DNA of 64,000 nt from Dehalococcoidia bacterium (GTDB taxonomy: Bacteria > Chloroflexota > Dehalococcoidia > Lucifugimonadales > UBA1123), in the NCBI GenBank assembly GCA_963665255.1, contig OY762210.1, positions 130,866 to 194,865 on the forward strand, given 5' to 3'. Position numbers and translations under genes: made by a program. Under the pieces are notes generated by a model. The model saw nothing but the letters and a program-made list of their open reading frames with translations, searched no databases and was not told the origin of the DNA. Shown in pieces: positions 7,832-38,703 of the stretch. The number at the start of each line of letters is the position of its first letter. Within the stretch, counting starts at the first letter, position 1.

Positions 7832-8581
7832 TTACTCCCCCCGCAGGCGCCGGAGTTCAGCCTCCAGTTCTTGCACACGAGACTCGGCGGCTTCTGCGCG
7901 GGTGCGTTCCTCTTCTGCACGGGTGCGTTCCTCTTCAGCACGGGTGTGCTCCTCTTCGGCACGTTCCCGCTCCTCTTTTCGCCTGAGTAGCCAGCGTTCT
8001 GCAACTGGGTCCCAGAATCGCAGGTCATCCTCCGACCACCAGATGTCCAGATTCAGAGCCTCGCTATGTGACCACACCCGACCATCGGACTCGTGCCGAA
8101 GCTCGAACCTGTGATACTCGCCGTCCCGAAGGTATTCGCCTACAAGTGGCTCGCCATAGAACTCACCGCCCGTCGCATCGTAGCGCCAGTATTCGGACAC
8201 GCCAAGCTCCGCGTAAAGGTCACGCTTGCGACCCAGATCGACGTTGGCTGTGCTGGGAGAACCTATCTCCAGTACGAAGTCCGGTGCCTTGCCAACTTCC
8301 CATAGCAGGTATGTGTTGTTCCCCTCCAGCGACAGTGAATGCAGCGCTGTCTCCGACAGCCCAAAGACCACGTAGCAGTCGGGAGAGACCAAGCGTCGGG
8401 GATTGCCTTCGACGTAGTAGATGAACGTGTTCCCGTTGACATTTGCGTCCTGAACGTCTCGGAAGTGGTCTTCGAGGTCACCCACTATCCTGCGATAAAG
8501 AGGCGCTTGGTACTCTCCGTCTGGCAATGGCATACCGTCCGATTCAGGATAGACAATGGCAGTGGAGGCTCGGGTGGTCAT
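7832..8581 (-). CDS. Uma2-family (DUF820) endonuclease with C-terminal coiled-coil repeat tail
   Basis: 249 aa. YPESDGMPLPDGEYQ...SPDCYVVFG...PDFVLEIGSPST...KRDLYAELGVSEYWRYD is the PD-(D/E)xK Uma2 pattern. The tail reads RAEEEHTRAEEERTRAEEERTRAE...ELRRLRGE. Confidence 0.85.
   Translation of the reverse strand: MTTRASTAIVYPESDGMPLPDGEYQAPLYRRIVGDLEDHFRDVQDANVNGNTFIYYVEGNPRRLVSPDCYVVFGLSETALHSLSLEGNNTYLLWEVGKAPDFVLEIGSPSTANVDLGRKRDLYAELGVSEYWRYDATGGEFYGEPLVGEYLRDGEYHRFELRHESDGRVWSHSEALNLDIWWSEDDLRFWDPVAERWLLRRKEERERAEEEHTRAEEERTRAEEERTRAEAAESRVQELEAELRRLRGE
7896..7979. repeat. 21-bp tandem repeat, about 4 units, inside the Uma2 gene
   Basis: Units gcgcgggtgcgttcctcttct / gcacgggtgcgttcctcttca / gcacgggtgtgctcctcttcg / gcacgttcccgctcctctttt. 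They encode the (RAEEE[HR]T)n tail. Confidence 0.8.
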
Positions 8582-10626: not shown

Positions 10627-11394
10627 ATGGTATGCTTTAGTATCGCGCCTGCTTGGGATTCAAGTGGTCAGCCAATTCTGGAGACTGAGGAGGGTAATGT
10701 GGTTGAGGAAGCGCACGACCCGGCCCCAGCCATATGGGTTCATCAGGAAAGCGCAGTAGTGGATGCCGACACCCACGATGTGTGGAGCTTTACGCCAGAG
10801 TTTCTGCTAGTGGACGGGATCGTGCCCGAAACTTGGTCGTGTCGACGAGCGAGTCGTGAACCGGCTGAGGCAGATATCGACTACGGACCCACCAATTGGC
10901 GCATGACGGAGAACCAGCTCTGGATCAGTGTTTACCCTGACGTGTCTGTCTCAGAGTGGCATAGCTTGCCGGAAGCCAGCCTCATACCCAGTTTGGCGCA
11001 ACGCTATTTGGAGCGAGTCCCATATCTCCCGTTTGAGAGAGCCTTTTTCTATTGGAATGTTTCCACCTTAAAGACCGACCAACTAAGTCGAATGGTGGAG
11101 AACATGCTTCCCAGCGATTGGCCCGAGGAATTTAAGACTTTAGCAAATCAGACTCAACCTCTGCTCCAATTCACCAGCGAAAACCACAATTTCCAGATAA
11201 CGATGCAAGACCGGGCAGTGGAACGTGAAGGCAGCACGTTCGACGATTCAATCGTCTTCAACTGCCACGCTTTTCCTTCCGCAGAGCAGCCCCTCGACAG
11301 AGCCATCACGGAGATGGGCAATTGGGCGGCGCGCTGGCGGACCTTACAACGTGCAATTCAGCATCTTACGGGAGAAATGGAGCCCAATGCCTGA
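10627..11394 (+). CDS. Hypothetical protein (island ORF A)
   Basis: 255-aa ORF with no motif I recognise. Alternative GTG start at 10699 lies behind GGAGGG. The stop overlaps the next ATG (ATGCCTGA). Confidence 0.5.
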   Translation: MVCFSIAPAWDSSGQPILETEEGNVVEEAHDPAPAIWVHQESAVVDADTHDVWSFTPEFLLVDGIVPETWSCRRASREPAEADIDYGPTNWRMTENQLWISVYPDVSVSEWHSLPEASLIPSLAQRYLERVPYLPFERAFFYWNVSTLKTDQLSRMVENMLPSDWPEEFKTLANQTQPLLQFTSENHNFQITMQDRAVEREGSTFDDSIVFNCHAFPSAEQPLDRAITEMGNWAARWRTLQRAIQHLTGEMEPNA

Positions 11395-12124
11395 GTCCCA
11401 AGTACGAGAATCGAGGCTGTTTACTCGTTCTCCGGGCGGGAGAAAGAGAGCTTCAGCTCATGCACCAAGATGGAATTTCCTCGCGACTAAACGTCTAGGG
11501 CAAGGCACTCCTCGCAACATGCCAGATCAATTGCAGGGTAGTACCTCGGAACCCCAATCCCTGATGGACATCATCGAACTGTCGCAATTGCCTCCTAACG
11601 TTGCCAGGGTTGTCGGTTCAAGAGGAGGGCATACACTCGCCGGCAGTCATATTAACGTTGAGTCTGCCAGCCTAGAATTAATTCCAGAAGTCTACGATGT
11701 CTATATTGCTCCTTCGACAGCCCCCGTGCAGGAAGCTCTTGCCAATGACTTCGAAGTCTATGCACCTGATTTACCGGATGCATTACGTGAACTCTACGAA
11801 GTCCAGAGTGAGGCCCGATCGGACGGAGGCATTGTCCCAGATGATGATGCGGTGGAGAGGGCCAAACGAGTACTCATGGCCATGTACCGGATCTCCCCCA
11901 GGCTGTACGCCGTTTACCCTATGGACGACGGGGAGATCGCCATTGACGCGGCAACGAAGTATGGAACATCCTTGGTTGTTCTATGCAATCCGGATGGAAG
12001 TGCCCAATGCTTAACCTACATTGGCGAGGAGTACCGCACGAAGGAGTATTCTGACACGGGAATCCTGCCTGATGACTTCATTCAGCAAGCACTGCTGGAC
12101 TCGAGCCCACTCACTGATTCTTGA
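11388..12124 (+). CDS. Hypothetical protein (island ORF B)
   Basis: The ORF track starts at 11225 and overlaps ORF A by 170 nt out of frame. The ATG at 11388 overlaps the ORF A stop by 7 nt and is more plausible. No recognisable motif. Confidence 0.45.
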
Positions 12125-12982: not shown

Positions 12983-13999
12983 ATGTCACTAAGGCTCACC
13001 AGTTTTCTGAAGGACAAACCAAACACTTCCGAAGTCACTCTGACCATCGACGAATACGAAGAGCGGTTCAGGACGCACAAGCGCGCTGGGATGGGAAGCG
13101 ACTTCAGGAAGTCCAGCGACCTCTACTATGACCTGGTCACTGACTTCTACGAGTACGGATGGGGGCGGTCATTTCACTTTGCCCCGCGCGTTTCTGGAGA
13201 GGGCTTCAAGGCGTCGCTTATTCGTCACGAGCGATTCCTGGCGAGTAAGCTCGGACTCGAACCCGGAATGGTCGTCGCCGATCTGGGTTGCGGGATTGGC
13301 GGGCCGCTGTTGGAGATCGCACGGTTCTCCGGCGCCAGGATCGTCGGCGTAAACAGCAACGCCTATCAGCTCGGGCGCGCCCGGAGATTTGCTGAAGAAG
13401 CGCAGATGACCCACCTGGCCGAGTTCATGCACTCCGACTTCCTGCACGTCGACGCCCCTGACGAGTCGTTCGATGCGGTCTACGCCATCGAGGCAACCTG
13501 CCATGCGCCGGATAAGCTCAGCATCTATGGCGAGGTCTTCCGCCTCCTGAAGCCGGGGGCGAGCTTCGGCAATTACGAATACTGCCTGACCGATCGCTTC
13601 GACCACAAGGACCCCGTCCACCTCAGGATCAAGGCTGATATCGAGCTGGGAGGCGGATTGCTCGAAATCGACGACCGCCAGACGGTTGATGACGCGCTTC
13701 GAACAGTCGGGTTCGATGTGTTGGAAACGCGGGATCTTACGGTGCAGACAGGCCCGTCGGTCCCCTGGTATCAGCCTCTCGTTGGTTCGGGTATCTCTTT
13801 CGCCAGCTTCCGCAGTTCACGTATCGGGCGCTGGGTCACCCACAACACGCTGAGAGTGCTGGAGGCGCTCCACATCGTCCCGCAGGGGTCGGTCCGCGTT
13901 TCGCAGAACCTGAACCTCTGTGCGATGGCCATGGTCGAGGCGGGAAGGCTCGGCATCTTCACGCCGATGTACTTCATCCACGCCCGTAAACCGGAGTAG
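12983..13999 (+). CDS. Sterol C-24 methyltransferase (ERG6/SMT family), paralogue 1
   Basis: 338 aa, collinear end-to-end with yeast Erg6 as I recall it. Region I is YYDLVTDFYEYGWGRSFHFAP, the SAM site is VADLGCGIGGP, region III is VYAIEATCHAP, followed by LKPGASF and the C-terminal GIFTPMYFIHARKPE. Confidence 0.9.
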   Translation: MSLRLTSFLKDKPNTSEVTLTIDEYEERFRTHKRAGMGSDFRKSSDLYYDLVTDFYEYGWGRSFHFAPRVSGEGFKASLIRHERFLASKLGLEPGMVVADLGCGIGGPLLEIARFSGARIVGVNSNAYQLGRARRFAEEAQMTHLAEFMHSDFLHVDAPDESFDAVYAIEATCHAPDKLSIYGEVFRLLKPGASFGNYEYCLTDRFDHKDPVHLRIKADIELGGGLLEIDDRQTVDDALRTVGFDVLETRDLTVQTGPSVPWYQPLVGSGISFASFRSSRIGRWVTHNTLRVLEALHIVPQGSVRVSQNLNLCAMAMVEAGRLGIFTPMYFIHARKPE

Positions 14000-14015: not shown

Positions 14016-15131
14016 CTAACGACGAGCGGCTGTGGTCTCGAACGGGGCCGTTGAGCCTCGGAAGGTGGACTGCAACGGTGGCGGAGGGAAGCTCTCACCC
14101 TCGCTCAGGTCAGGGTAGAACTGGGCGCAGTAGTACCTGAAGGGCATGATCTTGCCGTCGGAACGGCAGAGACGGGGGCGCGATACGTACTGCTTGCGGC
14201 TCCAGATGACCACGTCCTGCAGGACGTCATCCCTCTGCTGGGCCGCCATGAACCTGTTGATCAAGGGCGCTCGCCAGCTCACAGGGAGCAGTCCCAAACC
14301 TATGATCCTCCGCTTGGGCTTGCGTATCTCCCGTGCCTGCGAGACCAGCGTGAGGTCTATGAGCTTGCCGTCGACAGGCGTCGACAGCACCCACATACGC
14401 ATGTCCATGCCGATCGAGTGCTCGCGGACCTCCACGTACGAGTAGCCCAGCCCATAAACATGGGCGTGCGCAGAGACGTCGAAGGTGAGGCTCGCGAACC
14501 TGGCGATGGTTCGGACCCTCTTGAAGTCGAATTGAGCCTCCAGCAGGTGGCCGTCCACAGACACTTCCTGGACTGGGTTCACGTTGTCGTAGCCATGCAC
14601 GTATCGCAGGTGGGCCATGTCCACCGAGTTCTCGGTCGTCTCCTGAGGGTGGCCCGGAAAGCGGAGGGTGTTGACCTTGAAGTCGCACCATCCGACCTGG
14701 TCAGGCGACTTTTCGGGCAGACGCCACTGCGGCTCCCGTCCGCCTATTCCCCACCAGGCGAAGATCAGCCCGTTGATTTCGTGTGTCTCGAAGACGCGCA
14801 GCTTCGCGGTCCTTGGCGCCTCGGCGTAGGGAGTGGCGACGCACTGGCCGGTCGTGTCGAACTCGTACCCGTGGAATGGGCAGATAAGCAGGCCGTCGCG
14901 TACGCAGCCACCTGCCTCGGGTCCGAGGTCGGAGCCAAGGTGCGGGCAGACCGACTCGGCTACGCAGACATGTCCGTTCCGGTCACACCAGATGACGACG
15001 TTCACGCCCATCCAGGTCTTCTGGACGAGCCCGGACTTCAGTACGGCCTGGCGGGTCGCGATGAAGTACCAACCCTCGGGAAATGGGGAGGGCAACGGAA
15101 CATTAGCGGGCCCACTGCGCTGGGTTACCAT
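14016..15131 (-). CDS. Rieske [2Fe-2S] non-heme iron oxygenase, KshA / cholesterol-7-desaturase (Neverland)-like
   Basis: 371 aa. Rieske motif CPHLGSDL...(17)...CPFHGYEF. Mononuclear iron motif ENSVDMAHLRYVH (DxxHxxxxH). The C-terminal ...DGKIMPFRYYCAQFY resembles the KshA/Neverland-type tail. Confidence 0.85.
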   Translation of the reverse strand: MVTQRSGPANVPLPSPFPEGWYFIATRQAVLKSGLVQKTWMGVNVVIWCDRNGHVCVAESVCPHLGSDLGPEAGGCVRDGLLICPFHGYEFDTTGQCVATPYAEAPRTAKLRVFETHEINGLIFAWWGIGGREPQWRLPEKSPDQVGWCDFKVNTLRFPGHPQETTENSVDMAHLRYVHGYDNVNPVQEVSVDGHLLEAQFDFKRVRTIARFASLTFDVSAHAHVYGLGYSYVEVREHSIGMDMRMWVLSTPVDGKLIDLTLVSQAREIRKPKRRIIGLGLLPVSWRAPLINRFMAAQQRDDVLQDVVIWSRKQYVSRPRLCRSDGKIMPFRYYCAQFYPDLSEGESFPPPPLQSTFRGSTAPFETTAARR

Positions 15132-15184
15132 AGTTCAGCACTCCCTGTGGGTATTTTGGGATTAATCGCAACCATTTAACGCAA

Positions 15185-15214
15185 TTACACTTGTGCCTCA
15201 GTTAGCATTATAAT
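15185..15214 (+). promoter_or_regulatory. Candidate sigma70-type promoter for the P450 gene
   Basis: TTACAC (15185-15190), 18-nt spacer, TATAAT (15209-15214). It lies inside the strikingly AT-rich 184-bp divergent intergenic region, and GAGGGG precedes the ATG at 15316. Confidence 0.4.
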
Positions 15215-15315
15215 AGAAATCGTATCCTTTCCTCGCCCTGCAAACTGTGATTCATGAATATAGGTTAATTTATGTGGTATAGTTATATCATTAACGTCAA
15301 TGAGGGGCAAGGTAA

Positions 15316-17343
15316 ATGACAATCACAAAGGATGCTGTTAAGACGCAGGTGCTAAGCCTGCCTGAAGAACTCATCCTGATGCTTCTAAACGAGGAGAGCG
15401 GCTACTTTTACCAGGTACCCGGATGGGACCTGAACTGTGCCGTGGTCGGCGCCGTTCTCGCGGAACTCTCGATCGAGTCCCGCATCGACACTGACAGGGA
15501 CTCGCTGTTCGTTCTGGACGACACTGAGACGGGCAACTCCACGCTGGACCCCATCCTGAAGGAGATCGCGAGCGAGCCCGCTCAGCGCAACGCCCAGTAC
15601 TGGATCGAACGGCTCTCTCATTATGCGGAGTCGATCATCGATCAGACCCTGGACCGCCTCGTCCGCCTGAATATCCTGGAGTACCACGACGGCGATTTCT
15701 GGACGGTCGCTCCTAACGTGGAACAGACGGTACTGTTCGACGACACGGAGGAAGGGACCGGGATACAGTTCGTCAAGACGCGCATCCGCAACGAGATCTA
15801 CAACAACGAGATCCCCGACCCAAGAGACGTCATCATCATCTGTCTCATCAATACGTGCGACGTCTTTCGCTTCATGTTCAATCTCGATGAGCAGGCTGAG
15901 GAGCGCATCGAGTTCATCTGCAACATGGACCTGATAGGCCGGTCCATTGCCGCCGCGGTCTCCAACAATCTGGCCGGTCCGGTGCTTCGACACTCCCGCC
16001 TAAGCAAGAAGATTCCGACCGTCTCCCTGACGAAGATGGTGTTCAATCGGCATGTTCGCTCGGGAAACGTTCCCGCGCTCTTTGCCGACCTCGCAAAAGA
16101 GTACGGCCCGGTGTTCCAGATCCGGCCTCCGTTTGCCGCGCCCATGATCATGCTGGCCGGGCCTGATACAAACCGCTGGGTGCACCGGCGTGGACGCCTG
16201 CACCTGAGGTCCAGGGACTACTTCGCTGACTTCGAGAAGGTGTATGGCGCGTCCGGAGTATTGCCATCCCTGGATGGCGCCGATCATTTCCGGCTCCGCA
16301 AGTCACTGTCGCCGGCGTACTCTCGCGGAAGACTCATGGGTCAACTGGACCAACTCTACCATCAGACGCGGAAGTATATGGCGGACTGGGAAGTTGGAGA
16401 GTTCTATCCCGCGACGACCCTGTGCCGGCGAATGATTAACGCGCAACTCTCCGCGCTCTTTGTCAGCGTTGAATCTCAGGATATCTTTGATGATCTGACG
16501 TCGTACAAGGAACGGGCGCTCATGACTCACATCATAAAGATACTGCCCAAATTCATGCTTAAGACGCCGGGCATGAGACGCCGCGCGACCACCGTCGATG
16601 AGCTCCTCGAACGGATCCAGAGCGTACATACGCCTGCCCAGCGGGCTGACAGTCCCCGGGATCTTGCCGACGACCTTCTCAGCCTGCACGCGAGCGACCC
16701 CCAGTTTGTACCGGAGTCCAATCTGCGCTTCGCTCTTTCGGCAGCGCTGATTGCCAGTGTGTATCTTGGCGACGCGTTCAGCTTCGCCATGTATGCCATG
16801 GCATCGCAGCCAGAGATCTACGCCAGGATCCAGAGTGAAGCCGACGCGCTGTTCGACAACGGTGATCCGGATGCCATGGACTTCAACCCGGCCTCAATCG
16901 ACGTCACGCACCGCTTCCTCATGGAGTGCCTGCGTATGTACCCGATTGTTCCGATGTCTCTCCGGAACGTGATGAATTCGTGTGTGGTCGAGGGCTTTGA
17001 GTTACCGCTGGGATCACGACTTTACATTGCCCAGACAGCTTCACACTACATGGACGACGTCTTTCCCGACCCCTTCAAATTCGATATCGACCGCTATTTG
17101 CCCCCGCGCAATGAGCACCACAGTCCGGGGTACGCGCCTTACGGGCTGGGCACGCACACGTGTCTTGGCTCCCGGTGGATGGAGCTGCAGTTGGCCGTCA
17201 ATGTGCTAATGGTCGCGCACTACTTCAATATCAAGGTGTTCCCACCGAACTACAACCTGAAGTACAGACCGCTGCCGTCGATGAAGCCGAGCAAGAACCT
17301 GAAGTTCGACATAGTCGAGCAGAGGCGCGAGTTGAACGTCTGA
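15316..17343 (+). CDS. GPP34 (GOLPH3-like) domain fused to a cytochrome P450
   Basis: 675 aa. Residues ~10-230 follow the bacterial GPP34 pattern (LSLPEELILMLLNEESGYF...AVVGAVLAELSIESRI...DPRDVIIICLINTCDVFRFMF). The C-terminal ~440 aa is a P450, with ExxR (ECLRMYP), PFKFDIDRY, and the heme loop YAPYGLGTHTCLGSRWMELQ. Confidence 0.85.
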   Translation: MTITKDAVKTQVLSLPEELILMLLNEESGYFYQVPGWDLNCAVVGAVLAELSIESRIDTDRDSLFVLDDTETGNSTLDPILKEIASEPAQRNAQYWIERLSHYAESIIDQTLDRLVRLNILEYHDGDFWTVAPNVEQTVLFDDTEEGTGIQFVKTRIRNEIYNNEIPDPRDVIIICLINTCDVFRFMFNLDEQAEERIEFICNMDLIGRSIAAAVSNNLAGPVLRHSRLSKKIPTVSLTKMVFNRHVRSGNVPALFADLAKEYGPVFQIRPPFAAPMIMLAGPDTNRWVHRRGRLHLRSRDYFADFEKVYGASGVLPSLDGADHFRLRKSLSPAYSRGRLMGQLDQLYHQTRKYMADWEVGEFYPATTLCRRMINAQLSALFVSVESQDIFDDLTSYKERALMTHIIKILPKFMLKTPGMRRRATTVDELLERIQSVHTPAQRADSPRDLADDLLSLHASDPQFVPESNLRFALSAALIASVYLGDAFSFAMYAMASQPEIYARIQSEADALFDNGDPDAMDFNPASIDVTHRFLMECLRMYPIVPMSLRNVMNSCVVEGFELPLGSRLYIAQTASHYMDDVFPDPFKFDIDRYLPPRNEHHSPGYAPYGLGTHTCLGSRWMELQLAVNVLMVAHYFNIKVFPPNYNLKYRPLPSMKPSKNLKFDIVEQRRELNV

Positions 17344-18464: not shown

Positions 18465-20948
18465 CTAGGACGTGCCCTGTCCCTCCTCGTGGCGCCTGAA
18501 CGTGTCCTCGATGGTCACGTCGAGCTCATCCCAGTAGCGTTCCACCATGGAGCGCAGCCGCATGTTCTGGTATGCGCCCCAGACCACCATCGCGGGCAGC
18601 ACCACCAGTGCGGAGACTATCAGCGAGTAGACGATCGTGATGGTCGCTGTGATGCCGAACTGTGCGGACGCCTGGAGCGGCGAGGCTATCAGCACTCCGA
18701 ATCCGAACGCGGTCGTCAGCGCAGATCCCAGCAGAGCGGAGCCCGTCGTCGAGAGCGTCCTGATTGCGGCCTGCTCGGGGTTGCGCAGGTGGGCGAACTC
18801 CTCCCGGTACCGGTGAATCACGTGGATGGTGTAGTCCACTCCTATACCGATAGACAGCGCCGTGATGATCGACGTAACCAGCGTGTAGGGAATGTCCAGC
18901 AGCGCCATCGTGCCAAGTACGCAGATGAGGACTAGCACGATCGGCGCAACCGCGACGATCCCCAGCGCGGGCTGGCGCAGCGTCACCCAGAAGAAGATGC
19001 TGAGTATGCCCAGGGCTGCTGCGACAGTGGTGCCGATCGACGCCGTCTGGCCAGCAGTGATCTGGTCAGTGACCGCGACCGCGACGATGCTCTCCGAGAG
19101 TGCTGTGATAGTGTCGTCTTCGCCGAACCAGAGCGCCTCGATCTCACCCTGGAGATTCCGGGTCTGCTCGGGTTCGTGCGTGTAGGTCGGGAAGTGGAGC
19201 AGCATCGTGTCGACGCCTGCCGGATCGTTGACCAGCAGCCACATCAGCTCGGGCTCTCTCGCGATTAGCTTGTCGACGAACTGCTGCATCAGCACCGGAT
19301 CGAGTTCGACCCCGGGAGAGGCTTCGTCAAAGAGCGCTGCCAGTTCTGGGTCGTACTTGTCGCCGGGCTCGCCGGAGTCGTGTGTCCAGTCTCGGACCAG
19401 CTCTTCATACGAGCCCGTGATCTGTCCACCTGCAGCCTGCGGTCGGCGCTGTTCGTCTTCGAAGCCGGTCGTGAGATCGTGCAGGTTGAGGAGCGTCCGG
19501 CTCGCTGTGATTTCGGCCTGCACCAGTACGGTGGCGACCTCCGTCGAGCCGCCGACCGCTGCCTCGAGGGTGTTCATGTCCTCGATCACGCTCCCACCTC
19601 TGGGCAGGATGTCCTTGATGCTGAACTCGGACTTCAGGTCCCTCGCAGCGAAGCCCATCACGACCGTTATCGCGATGATGACGACCAGGAAGGGCGCCGG
19701 CCAGCGCGTTACCCACACTCCGAGGTGTTCTGCCATCTGGCTGATGCCGGGAAGCGCGTTCGACATCGGGCGGGCCGGCTTCAGAGTGTCGCGCGACTCG
19801 CGCCGCCGGTCGATGATGGTGCGTCCGGCCGGGATCAGCGTCAGCATCACGATCAGGCTCAATCCCACGCCCAGTCCGGCGACGATGCCGAAGTCGCCAA
19901 TCACACCGATGGGCGAGAACAGCGTTGCCAGCAGGCTGACGATGGTCGTGACGGCAGCCAGCATCAGCGGTACTGTGACGTTCCGCAGTCCTGTCCTCAC
20001 CGCCTGCATTACCGGCAGGCCGGCGATTCGCTGTTCACGGTAATGCGAGATCGCCTGGATTGCATAGTCCACCGTCAGGCTGATGATGATCACGGGCACC
20101 ATCGCTGTGAGCGAGCTCGGAGGACCTATCAGGGACAGTCCATTCGGCCCGAGCCAGCCCTCTGCACCAACGACCCACGTAATCGACAGTATTAGGCCCA
20201 GCAGTGTCAGCAGCATATCCGAGAGCGCACGAGTGAACACGAAGAGCAGCACCGCTATCAGCACCAGCGCCAGCCCTATCAGCGGCGCCATTCCGGTCTC
20301 GGTGGCCTCCCTGTACTCGTCCTCGACGATCACCGGCGACAGGCTCCTCACGCTCAGCGGGCCCTCGTCCGCCGCCGCCATCTCATTTATCTTCCGTTCG
20401 GCGTCCCCGGTCCTATCTTCGCCCGTATCGCTCAGGCGTATGTTGGCGACTGCCACCGGCGTGCCGTCGGTGTCGGTGCCGGTCATCGCATCGAGCGCAG
20501 CCCCAATCTCCGGGACGTTGCGCACGGCGTCGATCTCCGCCTGCGATACAGACTCGAGGCTGCCCGTCTGGAGAACGGCGTTCACCACGTACGAAGGCGC
20601 GAAGATCGCGTCGACAGGCACCAGAAGCTGGCCTACGCTAGGATCGCTGATGACCTCATTGATCAGGGAGTCCATCTGTGCGAGGCCACCGGGTGTAAGC
20701 GCATCCCCTCGGAAGATGAGCGTTACGATGCTGACTTCGCTGGACTCTCCGAAGTGCTCATCTATCTCCTGTGTCGCGGTGACGATGGGGTGTCCGGGCG
20801 GGAGGAACGCCACGTCCGCGCCCTCCGTCGGCGGGACGCGCATCGTAGTGCCCATGGCCATCACAACGGTAAGGACGAGGAGAACGCCTATCGTGATCCA
20901 CGGACGGACCGTTACCAGCCAGCTCAACTTGTCGAGTATCTGATTCAT
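18465..20948 (-). CDS. MMPL/RND-superfamily transporter (two MMPL halves, 12 TM)
   Basis: 827 aa. An N-terminal TM is followed by a large periplasmic loop and a 5-TM bundle, and this pattern occurs twice. The motifs ...SLTVDYAIQAISHYREQ... and ...GIGVDYTIHVIHRYREE... are typical MMPL/HpnN-like repeats. Confidence 0.85.
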   Translation of the reverse strand: MNQILDKLSWLVTVRPWITIGVLLVLTVVMAMGTTMRVPPTEGADVAFLPPGHPIVTATQEIDEHFGESSEVSIVTLIFRGDALTPGGLAQMDSLINEVISDPSVGQLLVPVDAIFAPSYVVNAVLQTGSLESVSQAEIDAVRNVPEIGAALDAMTGTDTDGTPVAVANIRLSDTGEDRTGDAERKINEMAAADEGPLSVRSLSPVIVEDEYREATETGMAPLIGLALVLIAVLLFVFTRALSDMLLTLLGLILSITWVVGAEGWLGPNGLSLIGPPSSLTAMVPVIIISLTVDYAIQAISHYREQRIAGLPVMQAVRTGLRNVTVPLMLAAVTTIVSLLATLFSPIGVIGDFGIVAGLGVGLSLIVMLTLIPAGRTIIDRRRESRDTLKPARPMSNALPGISQMAEHLGVWVTRWPAPFLVVIIAITVVMGFAARDLKSEFSIKDILPRGGSVIEDMNTLEAAVGGSTEVATVLVQAEITASRTLLNLHDLTTGFEDEQRRPQAAGGQITGSYEELVRDWTHDSGEPGDKYDPELAALFDEASPGVELDPVLMQQFVDKLIAREPELMWLLVNDPAGVDTMLLHFPTYTHEPEQTRNLQGEIEALWFGEDDTITALSESIVAVAVTDQITAGQTASIGTTVAAALGILSIFFWVTLRQPALGIVAVAPIVLVLICVLGTMALLDIPYTLVTSIITALSIGIGVDYTIHVIHRYREEFAHLRNPEQAAIRTLSTTGSALLGSALTTAFGFGVLIASPLQASAQFGITATITIVYSLIVSALVVLPAMVVWGAYQNMRLRSMVERYWDELDVTIEDTFRRHEEGQGTS

Positions 20949-21107
20949 GGCGTTCCCTTGGGTGACACTGAATATAACCTATCTATGGACGAGGTTATTG
21001 TATTCATTAAGACAAACCCATAGATAGTACTATCTGTCATTAACCATGTAAATGACTGTGACGGCGTTGCCTGGAGCAATTGATGCGACCGTAGCTACGC
21101 TAGTCCC

Positions 21108-21770
21108 TCACACAGCGCAGCAGGCGGCTGTGCAGGTCCTCAGGCCGAACAGGCAGGGGCGGCAGGAGCATAACTGCAGCTCGTCGTCGTCGTGGTCCTC
21201 GCCGCGAATGCCCTCGAGCCCCTCCCGGACGAGCCAGGGAACCAGCAGCAGCGCCGTTACGGCGTCCAGCCACCACCAGCCCAGCAGCGCGTTGGCGACC
21301 AGCCCGACCAGCAGCGTGAGGGAGAGGTACGAGCAGGCCAACGTCTCCTTCGCCTCGATGGCGATGGACTGCAGGTTGCTTTTCGCCGCGACCTGTAACT
21401 TCCAGACGGCGATGAGGGGCATGAATACCACGGAGAATATCGCGAGCCCGATGCCGACCAGCGACTCCTCTGCGCCTGCCCGACCGGCCAGGGCCCACAC
21501 TGAGCTGAAGACGATGACCGCCGAAAGTACCATGAAGGTCCAGCCGATGATTCGTACGATACGGTGCTCGACCGCCTCCGCGTACTCGTGGTCCTCGATG
21601 CCGAGCCTCCAGAGCACGAGAGAAGCCGCGGCCACCTCTATGTAGCTGTCGGCGCCGAAGGAGACCAGCGCAATGCTGCCCGCGGCGATCCCCGACCAGA
21701 GGGCGATGACACCCTCTACGACGTTGTAGAGGACTGTCACCACGAGCAGGAATCTGGCGAAGTTAAGCAA
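21108..21770 (-). CDS. Cation diffusion facilitator-like membrane protein with Cys-rich C-terminal tail
   Basis: TM core LYNVVEGVIALWSGIAAGSIALVSFGADSYIEVAAA... is CDF-like. The tail reads DHDDDELQLCSCRPCLFGLRTCTAACCAV. I chose the TTG at 21770 behind GGGAGG; the ORF track start at 21929 adds an implausible Trp/Arg-rich leader. Confidence 0.7.
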   Translation of the reverse strand: MLNFARFLLVVTVLYNVVEGVIALWSGIAAGSIALVSFGADSYIEVAAASLVLWRLGIEDHEYAEAVEHRIVRIIGWTFMVLSAVIVFSSVWALAGRAGAEESLVGIGLAIFSVVFMPLIAVWKLQVAAKSNLQSIAIEAKETLACSYLSLTLLVGLVANALLGWWWLDAVTALLLVPWLVREGLEGIRGEDHDDDELQLCSCRPCLFGLRTCTAACCAV

Positions 21771-22306
21771 TGCCGTCGTCCTCCCACAACGAGTCCAGTG
21801 CGGCGTGGGAGAAGATGCGGACGGCGTGGACGCGTGTTGACCCTGCCCCGTCAAGGCGCACGTGGTCATTCCAGGCTGTCTCCACAGCAGCCATCTCCAA
21901 CTCCATCGGCTGCATTGTATCCGAATCACTCAGATCGGGTTTTGACTGTCCTCGGAAAATCTGAGATATGATTCGGAGGGCGCTGAATCGTCTCAGCAGA
22001 TTCGATCAAAGGAGGTTGGGGCAACATGGATGCGCTGTATGTGGCGCTGTCGCTCTCGGTGGGACGCAGGCTGTGGAGAGAGGCGGGCGGTAGGCTATAG
22101 CAGGCCGAGTTGCGAGTTTTCCCATTCGGGCTGGTATCTTCATGGACTCGCACGCGCACCGAGCCCAATTCCACAATCGTTTTCACGCGAATTTTCGTAA
22201 AGATCAGTAACGTGCGTGTATAATGTCACACAGTACGAAAACAAAGTAGGGACTGACACAAATGTGTCATGAAATTGGACGTTATGCACCCGGCGAGGAG
22301 GGTAAA

Positions 22307-25039
22307 GTGAGCAAAATTCGCTTGATGACATTACTGGTTTCGGTGGTGCTCGTGGCTCTGTTTGCGGCAGCATGTGCCAGCGAAGAGGCACCCGCGCCCG
22401 CGCCCACCCCGGACTTCTCGGCTCTGATTCAGCAGGCGATGCAGTCGCAGCCATCGGGGGCAACTCCAGATGAGGTCGCTGCCGCAGTGCAGGCCGCGCT
22501 CAGCGCCCAGCCCGGCGTGACCGAGGCCCAGGTGGCCGACTCGATAGCTAAGGCGCTGTCGGACAGGCCCGGCATCACTGAAGCGCAGGTGGCCGATGCG
22601 ATAGCAGGAGCCATTGCCGATCGGCCCGGTGTCACTGAAGACCAGATGGCGGGCGCCATCGCCAACGCGCTCACACAGCAGACCCCAGGTCTGACCGAAG
22701 CCGAGGTAGCCGCAGCGATAACCAGGGCGCTCGAAGACCGCCCCGGTGTCTCTCAGGAAGACATCCAGATGGCTGTCGAAATGGCCGTCGAGCAGGCGAT
22801 GACTCCCGAGCCGTTCAGGATCGGCGTCATGGACTCCCTCACAGGCGTGGGCGAGTCATACGGCAACCCGATCGTCAATGCCAAGCAGCTGGCTGTGAAC
22901 GAGATCAACGCCATGGGCGGCATCAACGGCCGGATGCTCGAACTGATCATCGAAGACTCGAAGTGCAACGCACAGGATGCGATCACCGCCTACAGGAAGC
23001 TGACCGACGTCGACGGCGTGAGGATCATCCTGGGCACGACGTGCAGCGGCGCGATGCTCGGCGCAGCTCCGCTTGCCGAGGAGGACGGGGTAATCCTGCT
23101 CTCGCCATCCGCCACCAACCCGGACATCTCCGTTGCGGGCGACTACATCTTCCGCACGGCAATAAGCGACGCACAGCTTGGAGCCGATGCCGGCAACGCA
23201 ATGTGGGTTGACGGCATCAGAAACCTGGCGACCATCACCGAGACGACCGACTACGCCGAGGGCGTTCGCAGGACCAGCGTTGAGCAGTTCCAGAAGCTCG
23301 GCGGCAAGGTCGTAGGCGAGGAGCGCTACTCATCCGACTCGACGGACTTCAGGACCCAGCTCACCAAGCTCATAGGCCTGGAGCCGGACGGACTGCTTCT
23401 TGCCGCCCAGGGCGAACTGCCGGGTGGAACGATCATCAAGCAGGCGCGCGAGCTGGGCTACGATGGCCCAATCTACACTGAGAGCGTACCCACGGGCGCT
23501 ACCGCGCTCGAAATTGCCGGCGACGCCGCCACAGGCGTGAAGTCCATCATCCCCGCGGATCTCGACCCGAACAACCGCACCGCGCAGGACATGCTGGCCA
23601 ACTTCCGTGAGACTTACGGCTACCTTACCCTCGCCTGGTTCCTCGGGTCGGCCTACGACACGGTGTACGTCGCTGCTGAGTGCCTTGGACGCACCGGAAG
23701 CGACCAAGACTCCAATGGCTTCCGAAACTGCATGAACGACATCTCCCACACCGGCACCATCGGAGTGGACTACAGCTTCGATGCCAATGGCGACGTGGTA
23801 GGTCTGTCCTACGCAGTGGTTGAGATCCTGCCGGTGGCCGAGCGCAATGACGAGAATCTGGGCTACAAGCCCCTCGGTCCTGCCCCAAGCACGTCGATGG
23901 CCATGGCGGCCATGGACGACGGCATGATGATGATGGACGACAAGCCGTTCAGGATCGGCGTAATGGAGTCGGTCACCGGCCCGGGCGAGACCTACGGACG
24001 TGTCGCCGTGCAGGCGAAGCAGATGGCTGTCGATGAGATCAACGCCGCGGGCGGCATCAACGGTCGCATGCTGGAACTGGTCGTCGAGGACGAGAAGTGC
24101 AACGCGCAGGACTCGATCACGGCGTACAGGAAGCTGACCGACGTTGACGGCGTGAAGATCATTCTCGGAACGTCGTGCAGCGGCGCGATGCTCGGAGCAG
24201 CCCCGCTGGCTGAAGCCGACGGAGTCATCATGTTCTCCGGCCTCGCCACCAACCCGGACATTGCCGACGCCGGAGACTACATTTTCCGTACGTCGCTCAA
24301 TGACGCGCAGCTCGGCATAGACACCGGCAACCTGCTCTACGAAGACGGCGTCATGACGCTCGCCACTATCACTGAGGCAACCGACTACGCCGAGGGTGTC
24401 CGCAGGACAACGGTGGAGCAGTTCATGAAAGTAGGCGGGGAGCTAGTTGGCGAGGAGCGATATGCCTCCGACCAGACCGACTTCAGGTCGCAGCTCACCA
24501 AGCTGATAGGAGCCAACCCCGACGCGATACACATCGCCGCACAGTCGGAGTTCACTGGCGGTACTATCATCAAGCAGATCCGAGAGCTTGGATACGAGGG
24601 CGGTCTCTACTCCGAAATCGTTCCGGTCGGTACCACCGCGCTTGAGATCGCCGGAGACGCCGCCACCGGACTGAAGGCGGTAATCACCGACCTCGATCCC
24701 AACAACGAGACGGCGCAGGGTGTGCTCTCGAGGTTCCGAGCACGATACGGATATATAACGCTTCCGTGGTATCTCGGATCCGCGTATGACGACGTGTACA
24801 TCACGGCGGAGTGCCTGAAGCAGACTGGCGACGACCAGAACGCAGACGGCTTCCGCGACTGCATGTACGGCATCACCTGGAGCGGCACGATTGGTGAGAG
24901 CTACAGCTTCGACGAGAGAGGCGAGGTTGTGGGACTGGCGAACGTGGTGGTCGAGGTGCTGCCTCTGGCCGAGCGCACGGACGCCAACCAGGGCTACACG
25001 GTCCTTGGTCCGGCTCCTTCGATGATGATGGGGAACTAA
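22307..25039 (+). CDS. Lipoprotein with two tandem LivJ/type-1 periplasmic binding domains (branched-chain amino acid/amide ABC substrate-binding)
   Basis: GTG at 22307 behind GAGGAGGG. Lipobox LFAAAC. The two homologous halves start FRIGVMDSLTGVGESYG... and FRIGVMESVTGPGETYG..., and both contain GGINGRMLEL..ED.KCNAQD.ITAYRKLTDVDGV.IILGT.CSGAMLGAAPLAE. Confidence 0.85.
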   Translation: MSKIRLMTLLVSVVLVALFAAACASEEAPAPAPTPDFSALIQQAMQSQPSGATPDEVAAAVQAALSAQPGVTEAQVADSIAKALSDRPGITEAQVADAIAGAIADRPGVTEDQMAGAIANALTQQTPGLTEAEVAAAITRALEDRPGVSQEDIQMAVEMAVEQAMTPEPFRIGVMDSLTGVGESYGNPIVNAKQLAVNEINAMGGINGRMLELIIEDSKCNAQDAITAYRKLTDVDGVRIILGTTCSGAMLGAAPLAEEDGVILLSPSATNPDISVAGDYIFRTAISDAQLGADAGNAMWVDGIRNLATITETTDYAEGVRRTSVEQFQKLGGKVVGEERYSSDSTDFRTQLTKLIGLEPDGLLLAAQGELPGGTIIKQARELGYDGPIYTESVPTGATALEIAGDAATGVKSIIPADLDPNNRTAQDMLANFRETYGYLTLAWFLGSAYDTVYVAAECLGRTGSDQDSNGFRNCMNDISHTGTIGVDYSFDANGDVVGLSYAVVEILPVAERNDENLGYKPLGPAPSTSMAMAAMDDGMMMMDDKPFRIGVMESVTGPGETYGRVAVQAKQMAVDEINAAGGINGRMLELVVEDEKCNAQDSITAYRKLTDVDGVKIILGTSCSGAMLGAAPLAEADGVIMFSGLATNPDIADAGDYIFRTSLNDAQLGIDTGNLLYEDGVMTLATITEATDYAEGVRRTTVEQFMKVGGELVGEERYASDQTDFRSQLTKLIGANPDAIHIAAQSEFTGGTIIKQIRELGYEGGLYSEIVPVGTTALEIAGDAATGLKAVITDLDPNNETAQGVLSRFRARYGYITLPWYLGSAYDDVYITAECLKQTGDDQNADGFRDCMYGITWSGTIGESYSFDERGEVVGLANVVVEVLPLAERTDANQGYTVLGPAPSMMMGN
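22454..22798 (+). repeat. Six tandem ~57-bp (19-aa) repeats in the N-terminal linker of the binding protein
   Basis: SGATPDEVAAAVQAALSAQ / PGVTEAQVADSIAKALSDR / PGITEAQVADAIAGAIADR / PGVTEDQMAGAIANALTQQT / PGLTEAEVAAAITRALEDR / PGVSQEDIQMAVEMAVEQA. Confidence 0.85.
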
Positions 25040-29377: not shown

Positions 29378-30178
29378 CTACTCGCCCCGCAGACGCCTCA
29401 GCTCTGCCTCCACCTCAGCCAGCCGCTCCTCGGCAGATTCCCTGGCTTTTCTCTCTGTGTAAGCATTGGCTTCGGCATATTCTCTTGCCGCGCTCTCTTC
29501 GCGAGCGCGCTCTTCGGCGGACTCCCTTGCAGCCTGAACCGCATTGGCATTAGCGAAAACGTCCCAGCTATTCGGAAGCCACTCGCCCTTCGCGGGGTCG
29601 TACACACGCAGGTGTCCATCCTCCCAGCAGATGTCCAACCCCAGGACCTCACTGTGTCCGCGCACCCGGCCTCCAGGTTCTCGCTCCATCTCCACGCGTC
29701 GATACTCGCCGTCCACCAACCGCTCACCAACCAGCGGCTCACGATAGAAGTCGCCACCTGTTGAGTCGAAGCGCCAGTATTCACGAACCCCGATCTCTGC
29801 ATACAACTCCCGCTTGGCTACAAGGTCAGTAGTCGCAGTACTTGGGGAGCCTATCTCAAGCACGAAGTCCGGTGGCTTGCCCACCTCCCAGATACGGTAT
29901 GTATTGAACCTTTCTATAGACTCCATGCTGATGTCGATGGCTACGTAGCAGTCGGGAGACACTAGGCGTCGAGGGTTGCCCTCCTCGTAGTAGATGATCG
30001 TGTTGCCATTGACGTGTGTATTTGGGACGTCATGGTAGTACAGGTCAAAAATGGACAGGACCTCACGGAAGATGGGACCTTGGAACTCTCCGTCGGGCAA
30101 AGGCATACCGTCCGTTTCGGGATAGAAGACCTCGGTGAGATCGCCGGTGGAAGCTGCGTCGACTGGTCTGGTGGTCAT
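29378..30178 (-). CDS. Uma2-family (DUF820) endonuclease, paralogue 2
   Basis: MTTRPVDAAS...FYPETDGMPLPDGEFQ...SPDCYVAI...PDFVLEIGSPST...KRELYAEIGVREYWRFD...ELRRLRGE. ATG at 30178 behind GGAGGGG, matching the N-terminus of the paralogue at 7832-8581. Confidence 0.85.
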   Translation of the reverse strand: MTTRPVDAASTGDLTEVFYPETDGMPLPDGEFQGPIFREVLSIFDLYYHDVPNTHVNGNTIIYYEEGNPRRLVSPDCYVAIDISMESIERFNTYRIWEVGKPPDFVLEIGSPSTATTDLVAKRELYAEIGVREYWRFDSTGGDFYREPLVGERLVDGEYRRVEMEREPGGRVRGHSEVLGLDICWEDGHLRVYDPAKGEWLPNSWDVFANANAVQAARESAEERAREESAAREYAEANAYTERKARESAEERLAEVEAELRRLRGE

Positions 30179-30378
30179 GCTCCCCTCCTGCGCTCGATCA
30201 TAGCACAGCTCGGCGTCATTGCGGGACGGATTACGTCGCATCTATCGTGATATACCGTATAGGTTCATATTATGGTTATCCCTGACCGTGTAACCCTCGA
30301 AAAAGATTCACCCCCGCTACTCCGTGTCACAGCCGCGAATTAGGCTGACATGGACTGACGGGGGTGGTTTACGAACTG

Positions 30379-32720: not shown

Positions 32721-32824
32721 AGATGTTTCGCCTCCGGGTACTTGGCGAGAGGACATGGACGAATCCTCGCCCTTGAATCCGTCATTCCCGCGAACGCGGG
32801 AATCCAGGGGGATGGGTCGAGGCA

Positions 32825-33085
32825 CTACCCGCCCCGAATGCGCTCCTGAACACGCTCCCTGAATCCGGCAGGAGCCCCCGACGCAGCAGTCGAGCGAAGC
32901 ATGTCGATCGTAGCCCTCATCGTCTCGATGAACGCCGTGCACGGACCGCACCGCTCAAGGTGCGACCTGATCCTGGACGACTCCCCCGAGCCGAGGTCGC
33001 CGTCGATGAAGTCCGAGGACGCCACCCTAACCTCGCCGCAGTCGAGCTCGCGTCCCCTGAATAGTCTGACCAGTCGTGAAATCAT
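32825..33085 (-). CDS. Small zinc-binding anti-sigma factor (ZAS / zf-HC2 type)
   Basis: 86 aa. DCGEVRVASSDFIDGDLGSGESSRIRSHLERCGPC fits C...H-x3-C-x2-C. No TM segment. Confidence 0.6.
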   Translation of the reverse strand: MISRLVRLFRGRELDCGEVRVASSDFIDGDLGSGESSRIRSHLERCGPCTAFIETMRATIDMLRSTAASGAPAGFRERVQERIRGG

Positions 33086-38600: not shown

Positions 38601-38703
38601 CCAGGATGGCCAAACCTAATCCTCCGCGATGCACTGGTCCAGGGCCGTCAATAGGGTGAACTTGTCCCAGATTAGTAGGCACCCGCATTTGGAGCGCGGG
38701 CAT
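35692..38703 (-). CDS. Large solitary N6-adenine DNA methyltransferase-domain protein (type IIG/IIL-like candidate)
   Basis: 1003 aa. Gamma-class order of motifs: HDLAGTVFQRLI...FYTRPESATLLA (motif X-like), NIADYACGTGTLIHAAY (motif I), VIMNPPFTRPGSD (motif IV, NPPF). The N-terminal QPDILVTQMGAQPVVIENEY is PD-(D/E)xK-like but lacks the Lys. Confidence 0.75.
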   Translation of the reverse strand: MPALQMRVPTNLGQVHPIDGPGPVHRGGLGLAILENQLNGRIATLLGRMAPEWSVRGENKGAFQGNQKQPDILVTQMGAQPVVIENEYLPANTVEAEARERLGESLDASVVQATGKVNAVVALRSPTDLNECAGLDDVDSLLKQGVTLEYALFTGPSDVDATRFPKSGFIKGSIRDLAAFVEYAATPEDAVRSAVMILEEGVQDAAAILRLAADQNEDTQAAIVGYLKQSYDDQTLRMAATIMINALVFHQNLAGQHGVKNLTQVASADGVLTQANVLEEWQKILGVNYWSIFNIASDLLRSINPPGMAVEALKVMSRTADRLVGLGVSQSHDLAGTVFQRLIADRKFLATFYTRPESATLLAHVAIPDDGGWDDPERVKSFNIADYACGTGTLIHAAYRRLNQLHWLAGGKPEKLHAHMMENALTGCDVLPSSVHLTASMLSSSHPRQRYDGSRTIVMQYGKTEQGGVSIGSLDLLGETGAIRPLIPLHTATAVTGTGEAPSQLDMDMPPFSQNLVIMNPPFTRPGSDWEGEDRESDSIKHFQGLSNDLETQNRMSAIEKEYTKGTCYHGYAGIGSAFVALANQMVKKGGTLALVLPMTTLQGISWQKVRKLMSSAYRDVTVLTIAAARQDDQSFSADTGMAETMIVSRESSKSPGGDGLFVSLRRRPDSEMEATEIARAIRTTAESASVRTIEDGPFGGTPLLVGDERLGEITEAPLSADAPWSTVGISDFTVVQAVYQLVQGKVWLPQMREQDAQVVLMTTVQDVCQLGIYDMNIVGSGRQTAFVRIKPPTAAPTYPMLWGHDAQLETRTIVAHDSEGQVKPGREQRAAEIWDTRSHAHHNRDFRFNSQPLAVAFTENQTIGGRAWPNVKFDERSHEIAYTLWGNSTLGLLCYWWHSSRQQAGRGSMPITAIRSMPTLDVSKLSPAQLAKAEEIFEDMRDSQFLPANEAYRDNTRKELDHRVLIDMLGLPESILEPLDLLRLKWCSEPSVHGGKKTAPEG

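Follow-up and report, generated by a model that had tools for sequence, protein, structure and literature searches.

Organization of the locus

The DNA analysed here, referred to as the window, is a stretch of 64,000 nt from a Dehalococcoidia bacterium of the Chloroflexota (contig OY762210.1, positions 130,866 to 194,865). It contains a gene for a protein of 675 aa in which a GPP34 domain, related to the eukaryotic proteins GOLPH3 and Vps74, is followed by a cytochrome P450 domain. Genes for a Rieske oxygenase, two sterol methyltransferases (SMTs) and a transporter with a sterol-sensing domain are clustered around it (Table 1), and related loci connected the fusion to sterol genes in at least eight named bacterial lineages. 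The Rieske protein of the window is most similar to 3-ketosteroid 9alpha-hydroxylase KshA (PDB, E 6e-25). The start codon of the fusion gene is preceded by an AT-rich intergenic stretch with a Shine-Dalgarno-like site, GAGGGG, about 9 nt 5' of the ATG. A scan of the cluster for sigma-70 promoters and terminators detected no more sites than were found in shuffled sequence.

Table 1. Features of the fusion gene and its surroundings in the window; residue numbers refer to the fusion protein
Feature	Position	Strand	Basis or remark
Sterol methyltransferase 1 (Sterol_MT_C domain)	12983..13999	+	40% identical to sterol methyltransferase 2
Rieske [2Fe-2S] oxygenase, KshA-type C-terminal domain, divergent from fusion	14016..15131	-	Pfam, PDB
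AT-rich divergent intergenic region between Rieske and fusion genes	15132..15315	.	Sequence
GPP34-P450 fusion gene, 675 aa, type A, GPP34_L family member	15316..17343	+	Open reading frame and Pfam
GPP34/GOLPH3-fold domain, residues 15-215	15358..15960	+	Pfam, profile, model, charge
Loop G29-Y-F-x-Q-V-P-G-W37 at the position of the GOLPH3 W81 PI4P-pocket loop	15400..15426	+	Alignments
Basic linker, residues 216-248, into P450 N-terminal hinge	15961..16059	+	Alignments, charge, model
Cytochrome P450 domain, residues 249-675, E-class type	16060..17340	+	Pfam, alignments, Foldseek
Non-canonical I-helix motif A480-S-V-Y-L-G-D-A-F-S-F490	16753..16785	+	Alignments
Heme-binding loop YGLGTHTCLG, invariant C616	17140..17169	+	Alignments
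Sterol methyltransferase 2, convergent with fusion, 40 nt from fusion stop codon	17384..18433	-	Pfam
MMPL/RND transporter, sterol-sensing/Patched-like domain (HpnN/BstA-like)	18465..20948	-	Pfam/NCBIfam

The fusion gene is a single reading frame without any internal stop or frameshift, and all peptide strings cited in a preliminary description of this DNA were found in its product (LPEELILMLLNEESGYF, AVVGAVLAELSIESRI, DPRDVIIICLINTCDVF, ECLR, PFKFDIDRY and YGLGTHTCLG). An identical protein (P0001) is encoded on a contig of 3.7 Mb. The search for the same architecture in other genomes was successful. Homologues form at least 120 clusters at 74-100% identity, with dozens more down to 25%, and relatives are present in no fewer than 557 species-representative genomes. 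Since the homologues share the length, about 650-690 aa, and both domains, the fusion is regarded as real and not as an artefact of assembly; hundreds of collinear homologues rule out a frameshift or mis-assembly as its origin. The uninterrupted fusion first described from the sequence therefore stands. In the AlphaFold model of the full-length protein (predicted local distance difference test, pLDDT, 86.5; predicted template modelling score, pTM, 0.77), low confidence is confined to residues 1-10, 135-147 and 222-228, and the pTM suggests a defined two-domain arrangement of the modelled protein. Variants with a duplicated GPP34 domain were also encountered, one with a P450 domain (P0132, 872 aa, GPP34-GPP34-P450) and one without (P0200, 444 aa, GPP34-GPP34).

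The impression that GPP34 had not been described as a partner of P450 enzymes proved to be outdated. According to PMC11706023 (Microbiome 2025;13:4), bacterial GPP34 proteins are divided into short and long forms, and 656 of the 663 long ones, termed GPP34_L, consist of GPP34 plus P450. The window protein is an ordinary member of this described but functionally uncharacterised family.

Sterol genes are conserved next to the fusion

For a census of related loci, the best 80 relatives among the species-representative genomes (72-89% identity, type A) were selected and the surrounding 10 kb on either side were searched by tblastn. These loci derive from Dehalococcoidia/Chloroflexota, Binatia, Nitrospirales, Thermodesulfobacteriota, Opitutales, Longimicrobiales, Latescibacterota, and Rhodothermaceae. 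A KshA-like Rieske gene (KshA_C) was detected near the fusion at 68 of the 80 loci, a sterol C-24 methyltransferase gene at 61, ten of which have two copies, a gene for an MMPL transporter with sterol-sensing domain (MMPL/SSD) at 53, and a gene for an amine-oxidase-like protein dependent on flavin adenine dinucleotide (FAD) at 41. ERG24 was found at 14 loci, an SdmA-like Rieske gene at eight, and squalene epoxidase-oxidosqualene cyclase (SE-OSC) together with CYP51 at five, where the whole set of SE-OSC, CYP51, ERG24, and SdmA-like genes accompanies the fusion. If RND/AcrB efflux genes are counted as sterol-linked, 78 loci contain at least one of the gene types used as queries, L069 and L078 showing the AcrB type alone. 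Unbiased all-versus-all clustering of the neighbouring open reading frames returned identical families and no others at high frequency. The sterol-related context suspected beforehand is thus strongly borne out by gene linkage.

A cluster for de novo sterol synthesis with SE-OSC, CYP51, ERG24, and the SdmA-like Rieske gene lies next to the module in Nitrospirales, Binatia, Thermodesulfobacteriota, and Opitutales. The Binatia locus L003 may serve as an example. Pfam annotation identified genes for FA_hydroxylase, Rieske/KshA_C, the fusion, ERG4_ERG24, a p450 of 468 aa, SE plus OSC, two SMTs, and Rieske/VanA_C; further sterol-context loci annotated in this way are L002, L004, and L005. The 468-aa P450, encoded two genes downstream of the fusion homologue, is a true CYP51 (E 2e-104), and the fusion is therefore an additional P450 of the sterol cluster. 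Fusion genes lie inside or beside sterol clusters at L003/L039, L016, L017, L045, L065, and L071. Squalene epoxidase and oxidosqualene cyclase form one protein of about 1130 aa at L003:14554-17943 and also at L017, L045, L065, and L071.

The gene order at the Nitrospirales loci L016, L019, and L057 equals that of the 'Nitrospira MAG' cluster in Supplementary Data 1 of Brown et al. 2023 (PMC10070321), some of whose SMTs have been tested. Comparison suggests that the GPP34-P450, KshA-like Rieske and amine-oxidase-like genes are unlisted there, the fusion standing beside the first SMT gene. The terms P450, Rieske and Golgi do not occur in the supplements of that paper. Both PMC10070321 and PMC9531527 list homologues of known sterol genes only, mentioning neither a GPP34 domain nor a second P450, and PMC11706023 nowhere uses the word 'sterol'. 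Our literature search found no paper joining GPP34, P450, and sterol. The linkage to sterol clusters, as well as the evidence against binding of phosphatidylinositol 4-phosphate (PI4P) given below, appear to be new.

A gene set of this kind could also serve the use of foreign sterols. Host sterols would then be imported by the MMPL/SSD transporter and remodelled or degraded by the Rieske protein, the P450, and the flavoprotein in the manner of KshA and CYP125 in the cholesterol catabolism of actinobacteria. This is possible especially where the module stands alone in a genome: in the window and at most Dehalococcoidia loci no OSC, CYP51 or ERG24 gene lies within 10 kb of the fusion, the Rieske protein most resembles KshA, and one of the more distant fusions (type B) is located beside ChsH2/Ltp2-like genes of side-chain degradation. 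Against this, the commonest partner after the Rieske gene is that for SMT, an anabolic tailoring enzyme consuming S-adenosylmethionine (SAM), and at loci of the four lineages named above, none of which belongs to the Chloroflexota, genes for de novo synthesis directly adjoin the module. Clustering of neighbouring open reading frames revealed no beta-oxidation or ring-cleavage genes (KstD, HsaA-D) conserved near type A. Moreover, sterol synthesis clusters are present in sponge Dehalococcoidia according to Kelly et al. 2022 (PMC9531527). On balance, scavenging or catabolism appears rather unlikely as the general function.

At L013:17659-19865 and about 14 other Dehalococcoidia loci, genes for an MFS transporter and a lipid-carrier lipoprotein of the LppX/LprAFG type are found 3' of the MMPL gene, an arrangement similar to the LprG/P55 pair for lipid export in mycobacteria.

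The GPP34 domain

The assignment of the N-terminal part to GPP34 was confirmed by several approaches. Pfam GPP34 (PF05719) matches residues 15-215 with 101 bits (E 1.2e-28), the cutoff being 29.1, and the match spans positions 1-198 of the 201 in the profile. A profile built from 13 N-terminal domains retrieved GOLPH3 (3kn1, E 3.7e-12) and Vps74 from the PDB, and the same two proteins were the sole significant Foldseek PDB matches of the N-domain AlphaFold model (pLDDT 82; best E 1.8e-8, template modelling (TM) score 0.71). The modelled domain includes a beta-hairpin at residues 121-131 and a disordered loop at 135-147. GPP34 is the sole family detected in the N-terminal 230 residues, which have no flavodoxin, ferredoxin or FAD-binding match in Pfam and NCBIfam.

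Conservation of the domain is as strong as that of the enzyme to which it is fused. Mean pairwise identity over 80 species is 72.7% for the GPP34 domain and 75.6% for the P450 domain; judged by these values, selection constrains GPP34 to the same degree as the catalytic part. The PI4P pocket of human GOLPH3, which we take to be formed by W81, R90, R171, and R174, is not retained: these residues align to P35, V44, E105, and I108, so that none of the four is kept. The loop G29-YF-Q-VPG-W37 is invariant in 80 of 80 species, and the pocket has therefore been remodelled rather than degraded. In addition, the domain is strongly acidic, with an isoelectric point (pI) of 4.18 and a net charge of -24 in the window protein and pI values of 4.2-5.4 in most family members. 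A phosphoinositide tether of the GOLPH3 type is unlikely given the replaced pocket residues and this charge.

These properties bear on the published proposal for the family. In PMC11706023, GPP34 proteins including the long form are proposed to be secreted effectors that would bind host PI4P and block phagosome maturation, by which the symbiont would escape digestion; the role of the P450 is argued there by mammalian analogies alone. Flanking genes were analysed for the short form only, and pocket residues and secretion signals are not covered in that paper. The same source describes GPP34_L as exclusive to sponge symbionts in many phyla, and the family as expressed and reported solely from sponge symbionts, of at least 16 phyla, which fits an effector, as does the binding of PI4P by eukaryotic GOLPH3.

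The habitats of our homologues, deduced from record titles and from the naming of JGIcombinedJ30088 as Aplysina by Brown et al., point the same way: full-length fusions matched metagenome contigs including those with prefixes which these authors name Aplysina and Petrosia. Matches to GPP34 or P450 alone were mostly on contigs that, by their names, presumably come from soil or other non-sponge sources. Several close homologues have names of metagenome-assembled genomes (MAGs) that we believe to come from sponge studies (SB0662/SB0664, RHO1, COS, and APA bins; SAR202 bin90). L057 originates from 'Nitrospirales bacterium isolate Plut_88904', a name which presumably refers to the coral Porites lutea; if so, the family is not strictly exclusive to sponges.

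Bacterial sterol clusters are enriched in sponges (PMC9531527), which accounts just as well for a restriction of the family to these hosts. Apart from the lost pocket residues and the net charge, inspection of the fusion by eye, no dedicated predictor having been run, revealed neither a signal-peptide-like N-terminus nor a transmembrane segment. At 78 of 80 loci, with RND/AcrB counted, the fusion belongs to a sterol gene context, and the enzymes encoded beside it are cytoplasmic ones that depend on SAM or Fe-S. The genomic surroundings and the loss of the PI4P pocket thus favour a metabolic role over an effector of host phagocytosis, the sole published functional idea for GPP34 plus P450, and we regard the latter as highly improbable for the long form.

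Linker and P450 domain

The 33-residue linker between the domains has a pI of about 12. It leads into a hinge with an invariant P234 followed by G250-N251, for which the consensus in the wider fusion family is IPxAxGLPxxGN. Microsomal P450s possess an N-terminal transmembrane anchor and a basic linker. As the linker runs into the P450 hinge, the GPP34 domain occupies exactly the position of the microsomal membrane anchor.

Pfam p450 (PF00067) matches residues 249-643 (118 bits, E 4.7e-34). The P450 part had been considered complete, which holds for the heme core: the ExxR residues E537/R540, the FDIDRY meander with R593, and the heme cysteine C616 show no variation in alignments of 41 and 82 family members. 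It does not hold for the I-helix, in which the canonical acid-alcohol pair, (A/G)Gx(D/E)T(T/S), is absent, with no threonine in any alignment register. Opposite the canonical threonine stands L484, a gap or F488, according to the P450 taken as reference. Within type A the unusual motif is itself highly conserved, S481, Y483, G485, D486, S489, and F490 being invariant in 13 sequences and the remaining positions conserved to at least 90%; unlike type A, the distant type-B fusions retain AGxDT. Because the threonine is missing, the enzyme may use substrate-assisted or otherwise atypical chemistry.

Among the matches listed for the fusion P450 (the best 60 of 178 PDB matches, E<=0.001) are the E-class enzymes CYP725, CYP120, CYP51, CYP102, CYP46A1, and CYP3A. 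Two of the steroid-related identities considered at the outset were not upheld. CYP51 is ruled out: the best E-value for a CYP51 structure is about 4e-18, compared with 2e-104 for the genuine CYP51 of the homologous cluster, and an I-helix signature of the AGQHTS type is likewise missing. A CYP125-like identity was rejected, as no structure of CYP125, and none of CYP142 or CYP124, is among these listed matches. Foldseek comparison of the full-length model returned solely generic E-class P450s (CYP184A1, BM3, CYP3A4) and gave no clue to the substrate; NCBIfam yielded only matches far below cutoff, to terpenoid or RiPP P450s.

An I-helix threonine is also absent from the CYP710A enzymes, in which substrate recognition site 4 (SRS4) has the motif F(L/M)F(A/S)QDA(S/T)(S/T)S (PMC9368853). 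Compared by this published motif alone, ASVYLGDAFSF does not fit the signature literally. In two independent alignments the D-A pair of the fusion is out of register with the 'DA' of CYP710, and the resemblance is for this reason not relied on.

Instead of targeting the protein, GPP34 could act within the molecule, as a regulator or substrate-presenting cap. Its remodelled, aromatic-rich pocket would then bind a sterol or cover a basic face of the P450, gating the access of substrate or redox partner. The GPP34 domain is acidic (pI about 4.2-5) and the P450 domain joined to it is basic in most members (pI 8.8-10), and the pTM of the model, the invariance of the pocket loop GYFxQVPGW in 80 species, and the tandem GPP34-GPP34-P450 variants would all be compatible with such a cap. 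The P450 domain of the window protein is nevertheless near neutral (pI 6.9), and sterol binding is not known from any GPP34 protein. A cap or regulator is consequently considered unlikely, somewhat more so than scavenging.

Distant fusions and unfused relatives

More distant fusions (33-60% identity) were examined at 18 metagenome loci. A KshA-like Rieske, MMPL or amine-oxidase-like gene was found at eight of them, SMT plus RND/AcrB at two more, and RND/AcrB alone at one. At L099:6425-11986, two GPP34-P450 paralogues are arranged in tandem with an amine-oxidase-like gene between them, a KshA-like Rieske gene upstream, and an AcrB-type RND gene downstream. In the acidobacterial locus L087:8100-13166, the gene for a 634-aa cyclase of the squalene-hopene/oxidosqualene type overlaps the start of a type-B fusion gene, and a sulfotransferase gene follows; this arrangement could represent an operon for sulfated triterpenoids or sterols. 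For this contig, P0382 has the source name 'MAG: Acidobacteria bacterium'. In Chloroflexi, ChsH2-like and Ltp2-like genes are located upstream of the type-B fusion at L088:6474-14982, and likewise at L091, with genes for an ecdysteroid-kinase-like (EcKL) kinase and an MFS transporter downstream.

Relatives consisting of P450 alone (36-42% identity; the soil-type loci L105, L108, and L109, and the sponge locus L096) have unrelated neighbours (PPDK, MacB, MTHFR, PEMT) or neighbours without Pfam match. Near stand-alone GPP34 genes (L118-L168), the queries used detected no P450 or sterol genes.

Transfer of the module between phyla

Fusion proteins of Chloroflexota are as similar to those of other phyla (median identity 73.0%) as they are to one another (72.7%), which indicates horizontal transfer among sponge symbionts combined with strong purifying selection. 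Identity reaches 91% between Binatia and Thermodesulfobacteriota, and 90% between Latescibacterota and Rhodothermaceae. For the core sterol cluster, horizontal transfer and purifying selection have likewise been reported by Kelly et al. (PMC9531527).

Evident transfer between phyla could mean that the fusion merely hitch-hikes on a genomic island and acts on a non-sterol lipid or a xenobiotic. The generic E-class fold, with its likeness to CYP184A1, BM3, and CYP3A4, and the RND efflux genes flanking the fusion in Latescibacterota could be read in this way. However, gene order near the fusion is reshuffled across lineages and the partner genes nevertheless remain adjacent, a pattern expected if selection acts on a shared function but not if the fusion is carried along passively; distant paralogues, too, adjoin triterpenoid or steroid genes. 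Hitch-hiking is therefore very unlikely, almost to the degree of the effector proposal.

Other genes of the window

Open reading frames without Pfam match flank the sterol module on both sides (10627-12124(+) and 21052-21929), and their homologues are not conserved near the fusion elsewhere. Farther away, a protein of 925 aa with two periplasmic-binding domains is encoded at 22262-25039 and precedes an ABC transporter for branched-chain amino acids. The 760-aa product of 30669-32951(-) contains two PF01012 stretches and the FAD-binding domain of the alpha subunit of electron transfer flavoprotein (ETF), and looks like a beta-alpha ETF fusion. An open reading frame of 1003 aa at 35692-38703(-) has no Pfam match at E<=0.001. 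Genes for putative restriction endonucleases of the Uma2 family were identified at 7832-8581(-) and 29378-30241(-).

Proposed function of the fusion protein

Taken together, the fusion protein is probably a cytoplasmic sterol-tailoring P450 belonging to a conserved module of sponge bacteria, with GPP34 as a docking domain in place of the membrane anchor. The module comprises the divergently transcribed KshA-like Rieske gene, the GPP34-P450 gene, the convergent sterol C-24 methyltransferase gene, the MMPL/SSD transporter gene and, in many cases, the gene for the FAD amine-oxidase-like protein. Confidence in the parts of this proposal differs. Sterols are proposed as the substrate class with high confidence. 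As the reaction, a late step that would desaturate or hydroxylate the sterol in its side chain or nucleus, in cooperation with the SMTs, is suggested with low confidence, C-22 or side-chain desaturation being a first guess. Position, conservation and charge of the GPP34 domain point, with moderate to low confidence, to a role in docking. The domain, itself non-catalytic, would bring the soluble P450 to sterol embedded in the membrane or to a protein located there, for example the transporter with the sterol-sensing domain, without any reading of PI4P.

Several observations weigh against a sterol-tailoring enzyme docked in this way. Clustering of the neighbouring open reading frames revealed no conserved ferredoxin or reductase gene near the fusion, no OSC, CYP51 or ERG24 gene is present in the window, and a steroid context was not found at the type-B locus L086. 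From its I-helix sequence, the type-A enzyme may be no ordinary monooxygenase. An acidic GPP34 domain is no obvious binder of anionic bacterial membranes. Finally, gene linkage fixes neither the reaction nor the source of the substrate, which could be bacterial synthesis or the host.

A wider hypothesis is put forward tentatively, as something possible but not probable. GPP34-P450, the KshA-like Rieske protein, and the amine-oxidase-like flavoprotein could be the missing, non-orthologous enzymes of late sterol tailoring in sponge symbionts, and GPP34 could represent an adaptor of ancient bacterial origin through which soluble enzymes of lipid modification dock to membrane partners, a prokaryotic forerunner of the manner in which GOLPH3/Vps74 retains Golgi enzymes at membranes. 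If this is true, these enzymes would together with SMTs account for unconventional sponge sterols (poly-alkylated, delta-22, delta-5,7), with sulfated forms derived from cyclase-P450-sulfotransferase operons, and the published phagocytosis-effector model would be wrong for the long form. The bacterial share in 'sponge' sterane biomarkers would also become testable enzyme by enzyme. So far, the debate on these biomarkers (bacterial 24-isopropyl and other alkylated sterols) rests on methyltransferases, and the P450/Rieske/flavoprotein set provides candidates for other tailoring steps. GOLPH3/Vps74 is an important Golgi adaptor of eukaryotes and an oncogene, and we know of no function for its prokaryotic relatives. 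A bacterial GPP34 domain that is conserved like its fused enzyme and tied to sterol metabolism offers a tractable entry to them.

Comparison with known systems

The closest counterpart is GPP34_L itself. The proteins described under this name in PMC11706023 share both Pfam domains and their order with the window protein and come from Dehalococcoidia/Chloroflexota, Nitrospirota, Acidobacteriota, and other bacteria of sponges; there is no structural difference to the window protein, and what differs is the interpretation, an effector there and a link to sterols here.

The sterol clusters known from sponge symbionts, the ERG24-CYP51-LSS 'CSGs' (PMC9531527) and the SMT clusters (PMC10070321), occur in the same organisms and share SMT, SE-OSC, CYP51, ERG24, and SdmA with the loci studied here. 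SMTs of sponge-symbiont bacteria methylate sterols in vitro (PMC10070321), and the sterol clusters are enriched in sponges (PMC9531527). The GPP34-P450, the KshA-like Rieske and the amine-oxidase-like genes are the components unmentioned in these descriptions.

With GOLPH3/Vps74 (PDB 3kn1, 9qpq, 2zih) the GPP34 domain shares the fold including the beta-hairpin (Foldseek TM 0.6-0.71) and the character of a non-catalytic, adaptor-type module. It differs by an identity of only about 20%, the replacement of all four PI4P-pocket residues, a strongly negative charge, and the fusion to an enzyme, whereas GOLPH3/Vps74 is a free adaptor for COPI and glycosyltransferases.

The C-22 desaturases CYP710A and CYP61 (ERG5) are likewise second, non-CYP51 sterol P450s alongside SMT, and CYP710A also has no I-helix threonine. 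Compared by motif alone, the ASVYLGDAFSF sequence of the window protein lies outside the SRS4 signature of CYP710A, with its D-A pair out of register.

Bacterial E-class P450s with a second domain are also known from P450 BM3/CYP102 and the CYP51-ferredoxin fusion of Methylococcus (CYP51fx), the latter also an enzyme of a sterol pathway. Their partner is a C-terminal redox domain, whereas that of the window protein is N-terminal, matches no cofactor-binding family, and is located at the position of the membrane anchor.

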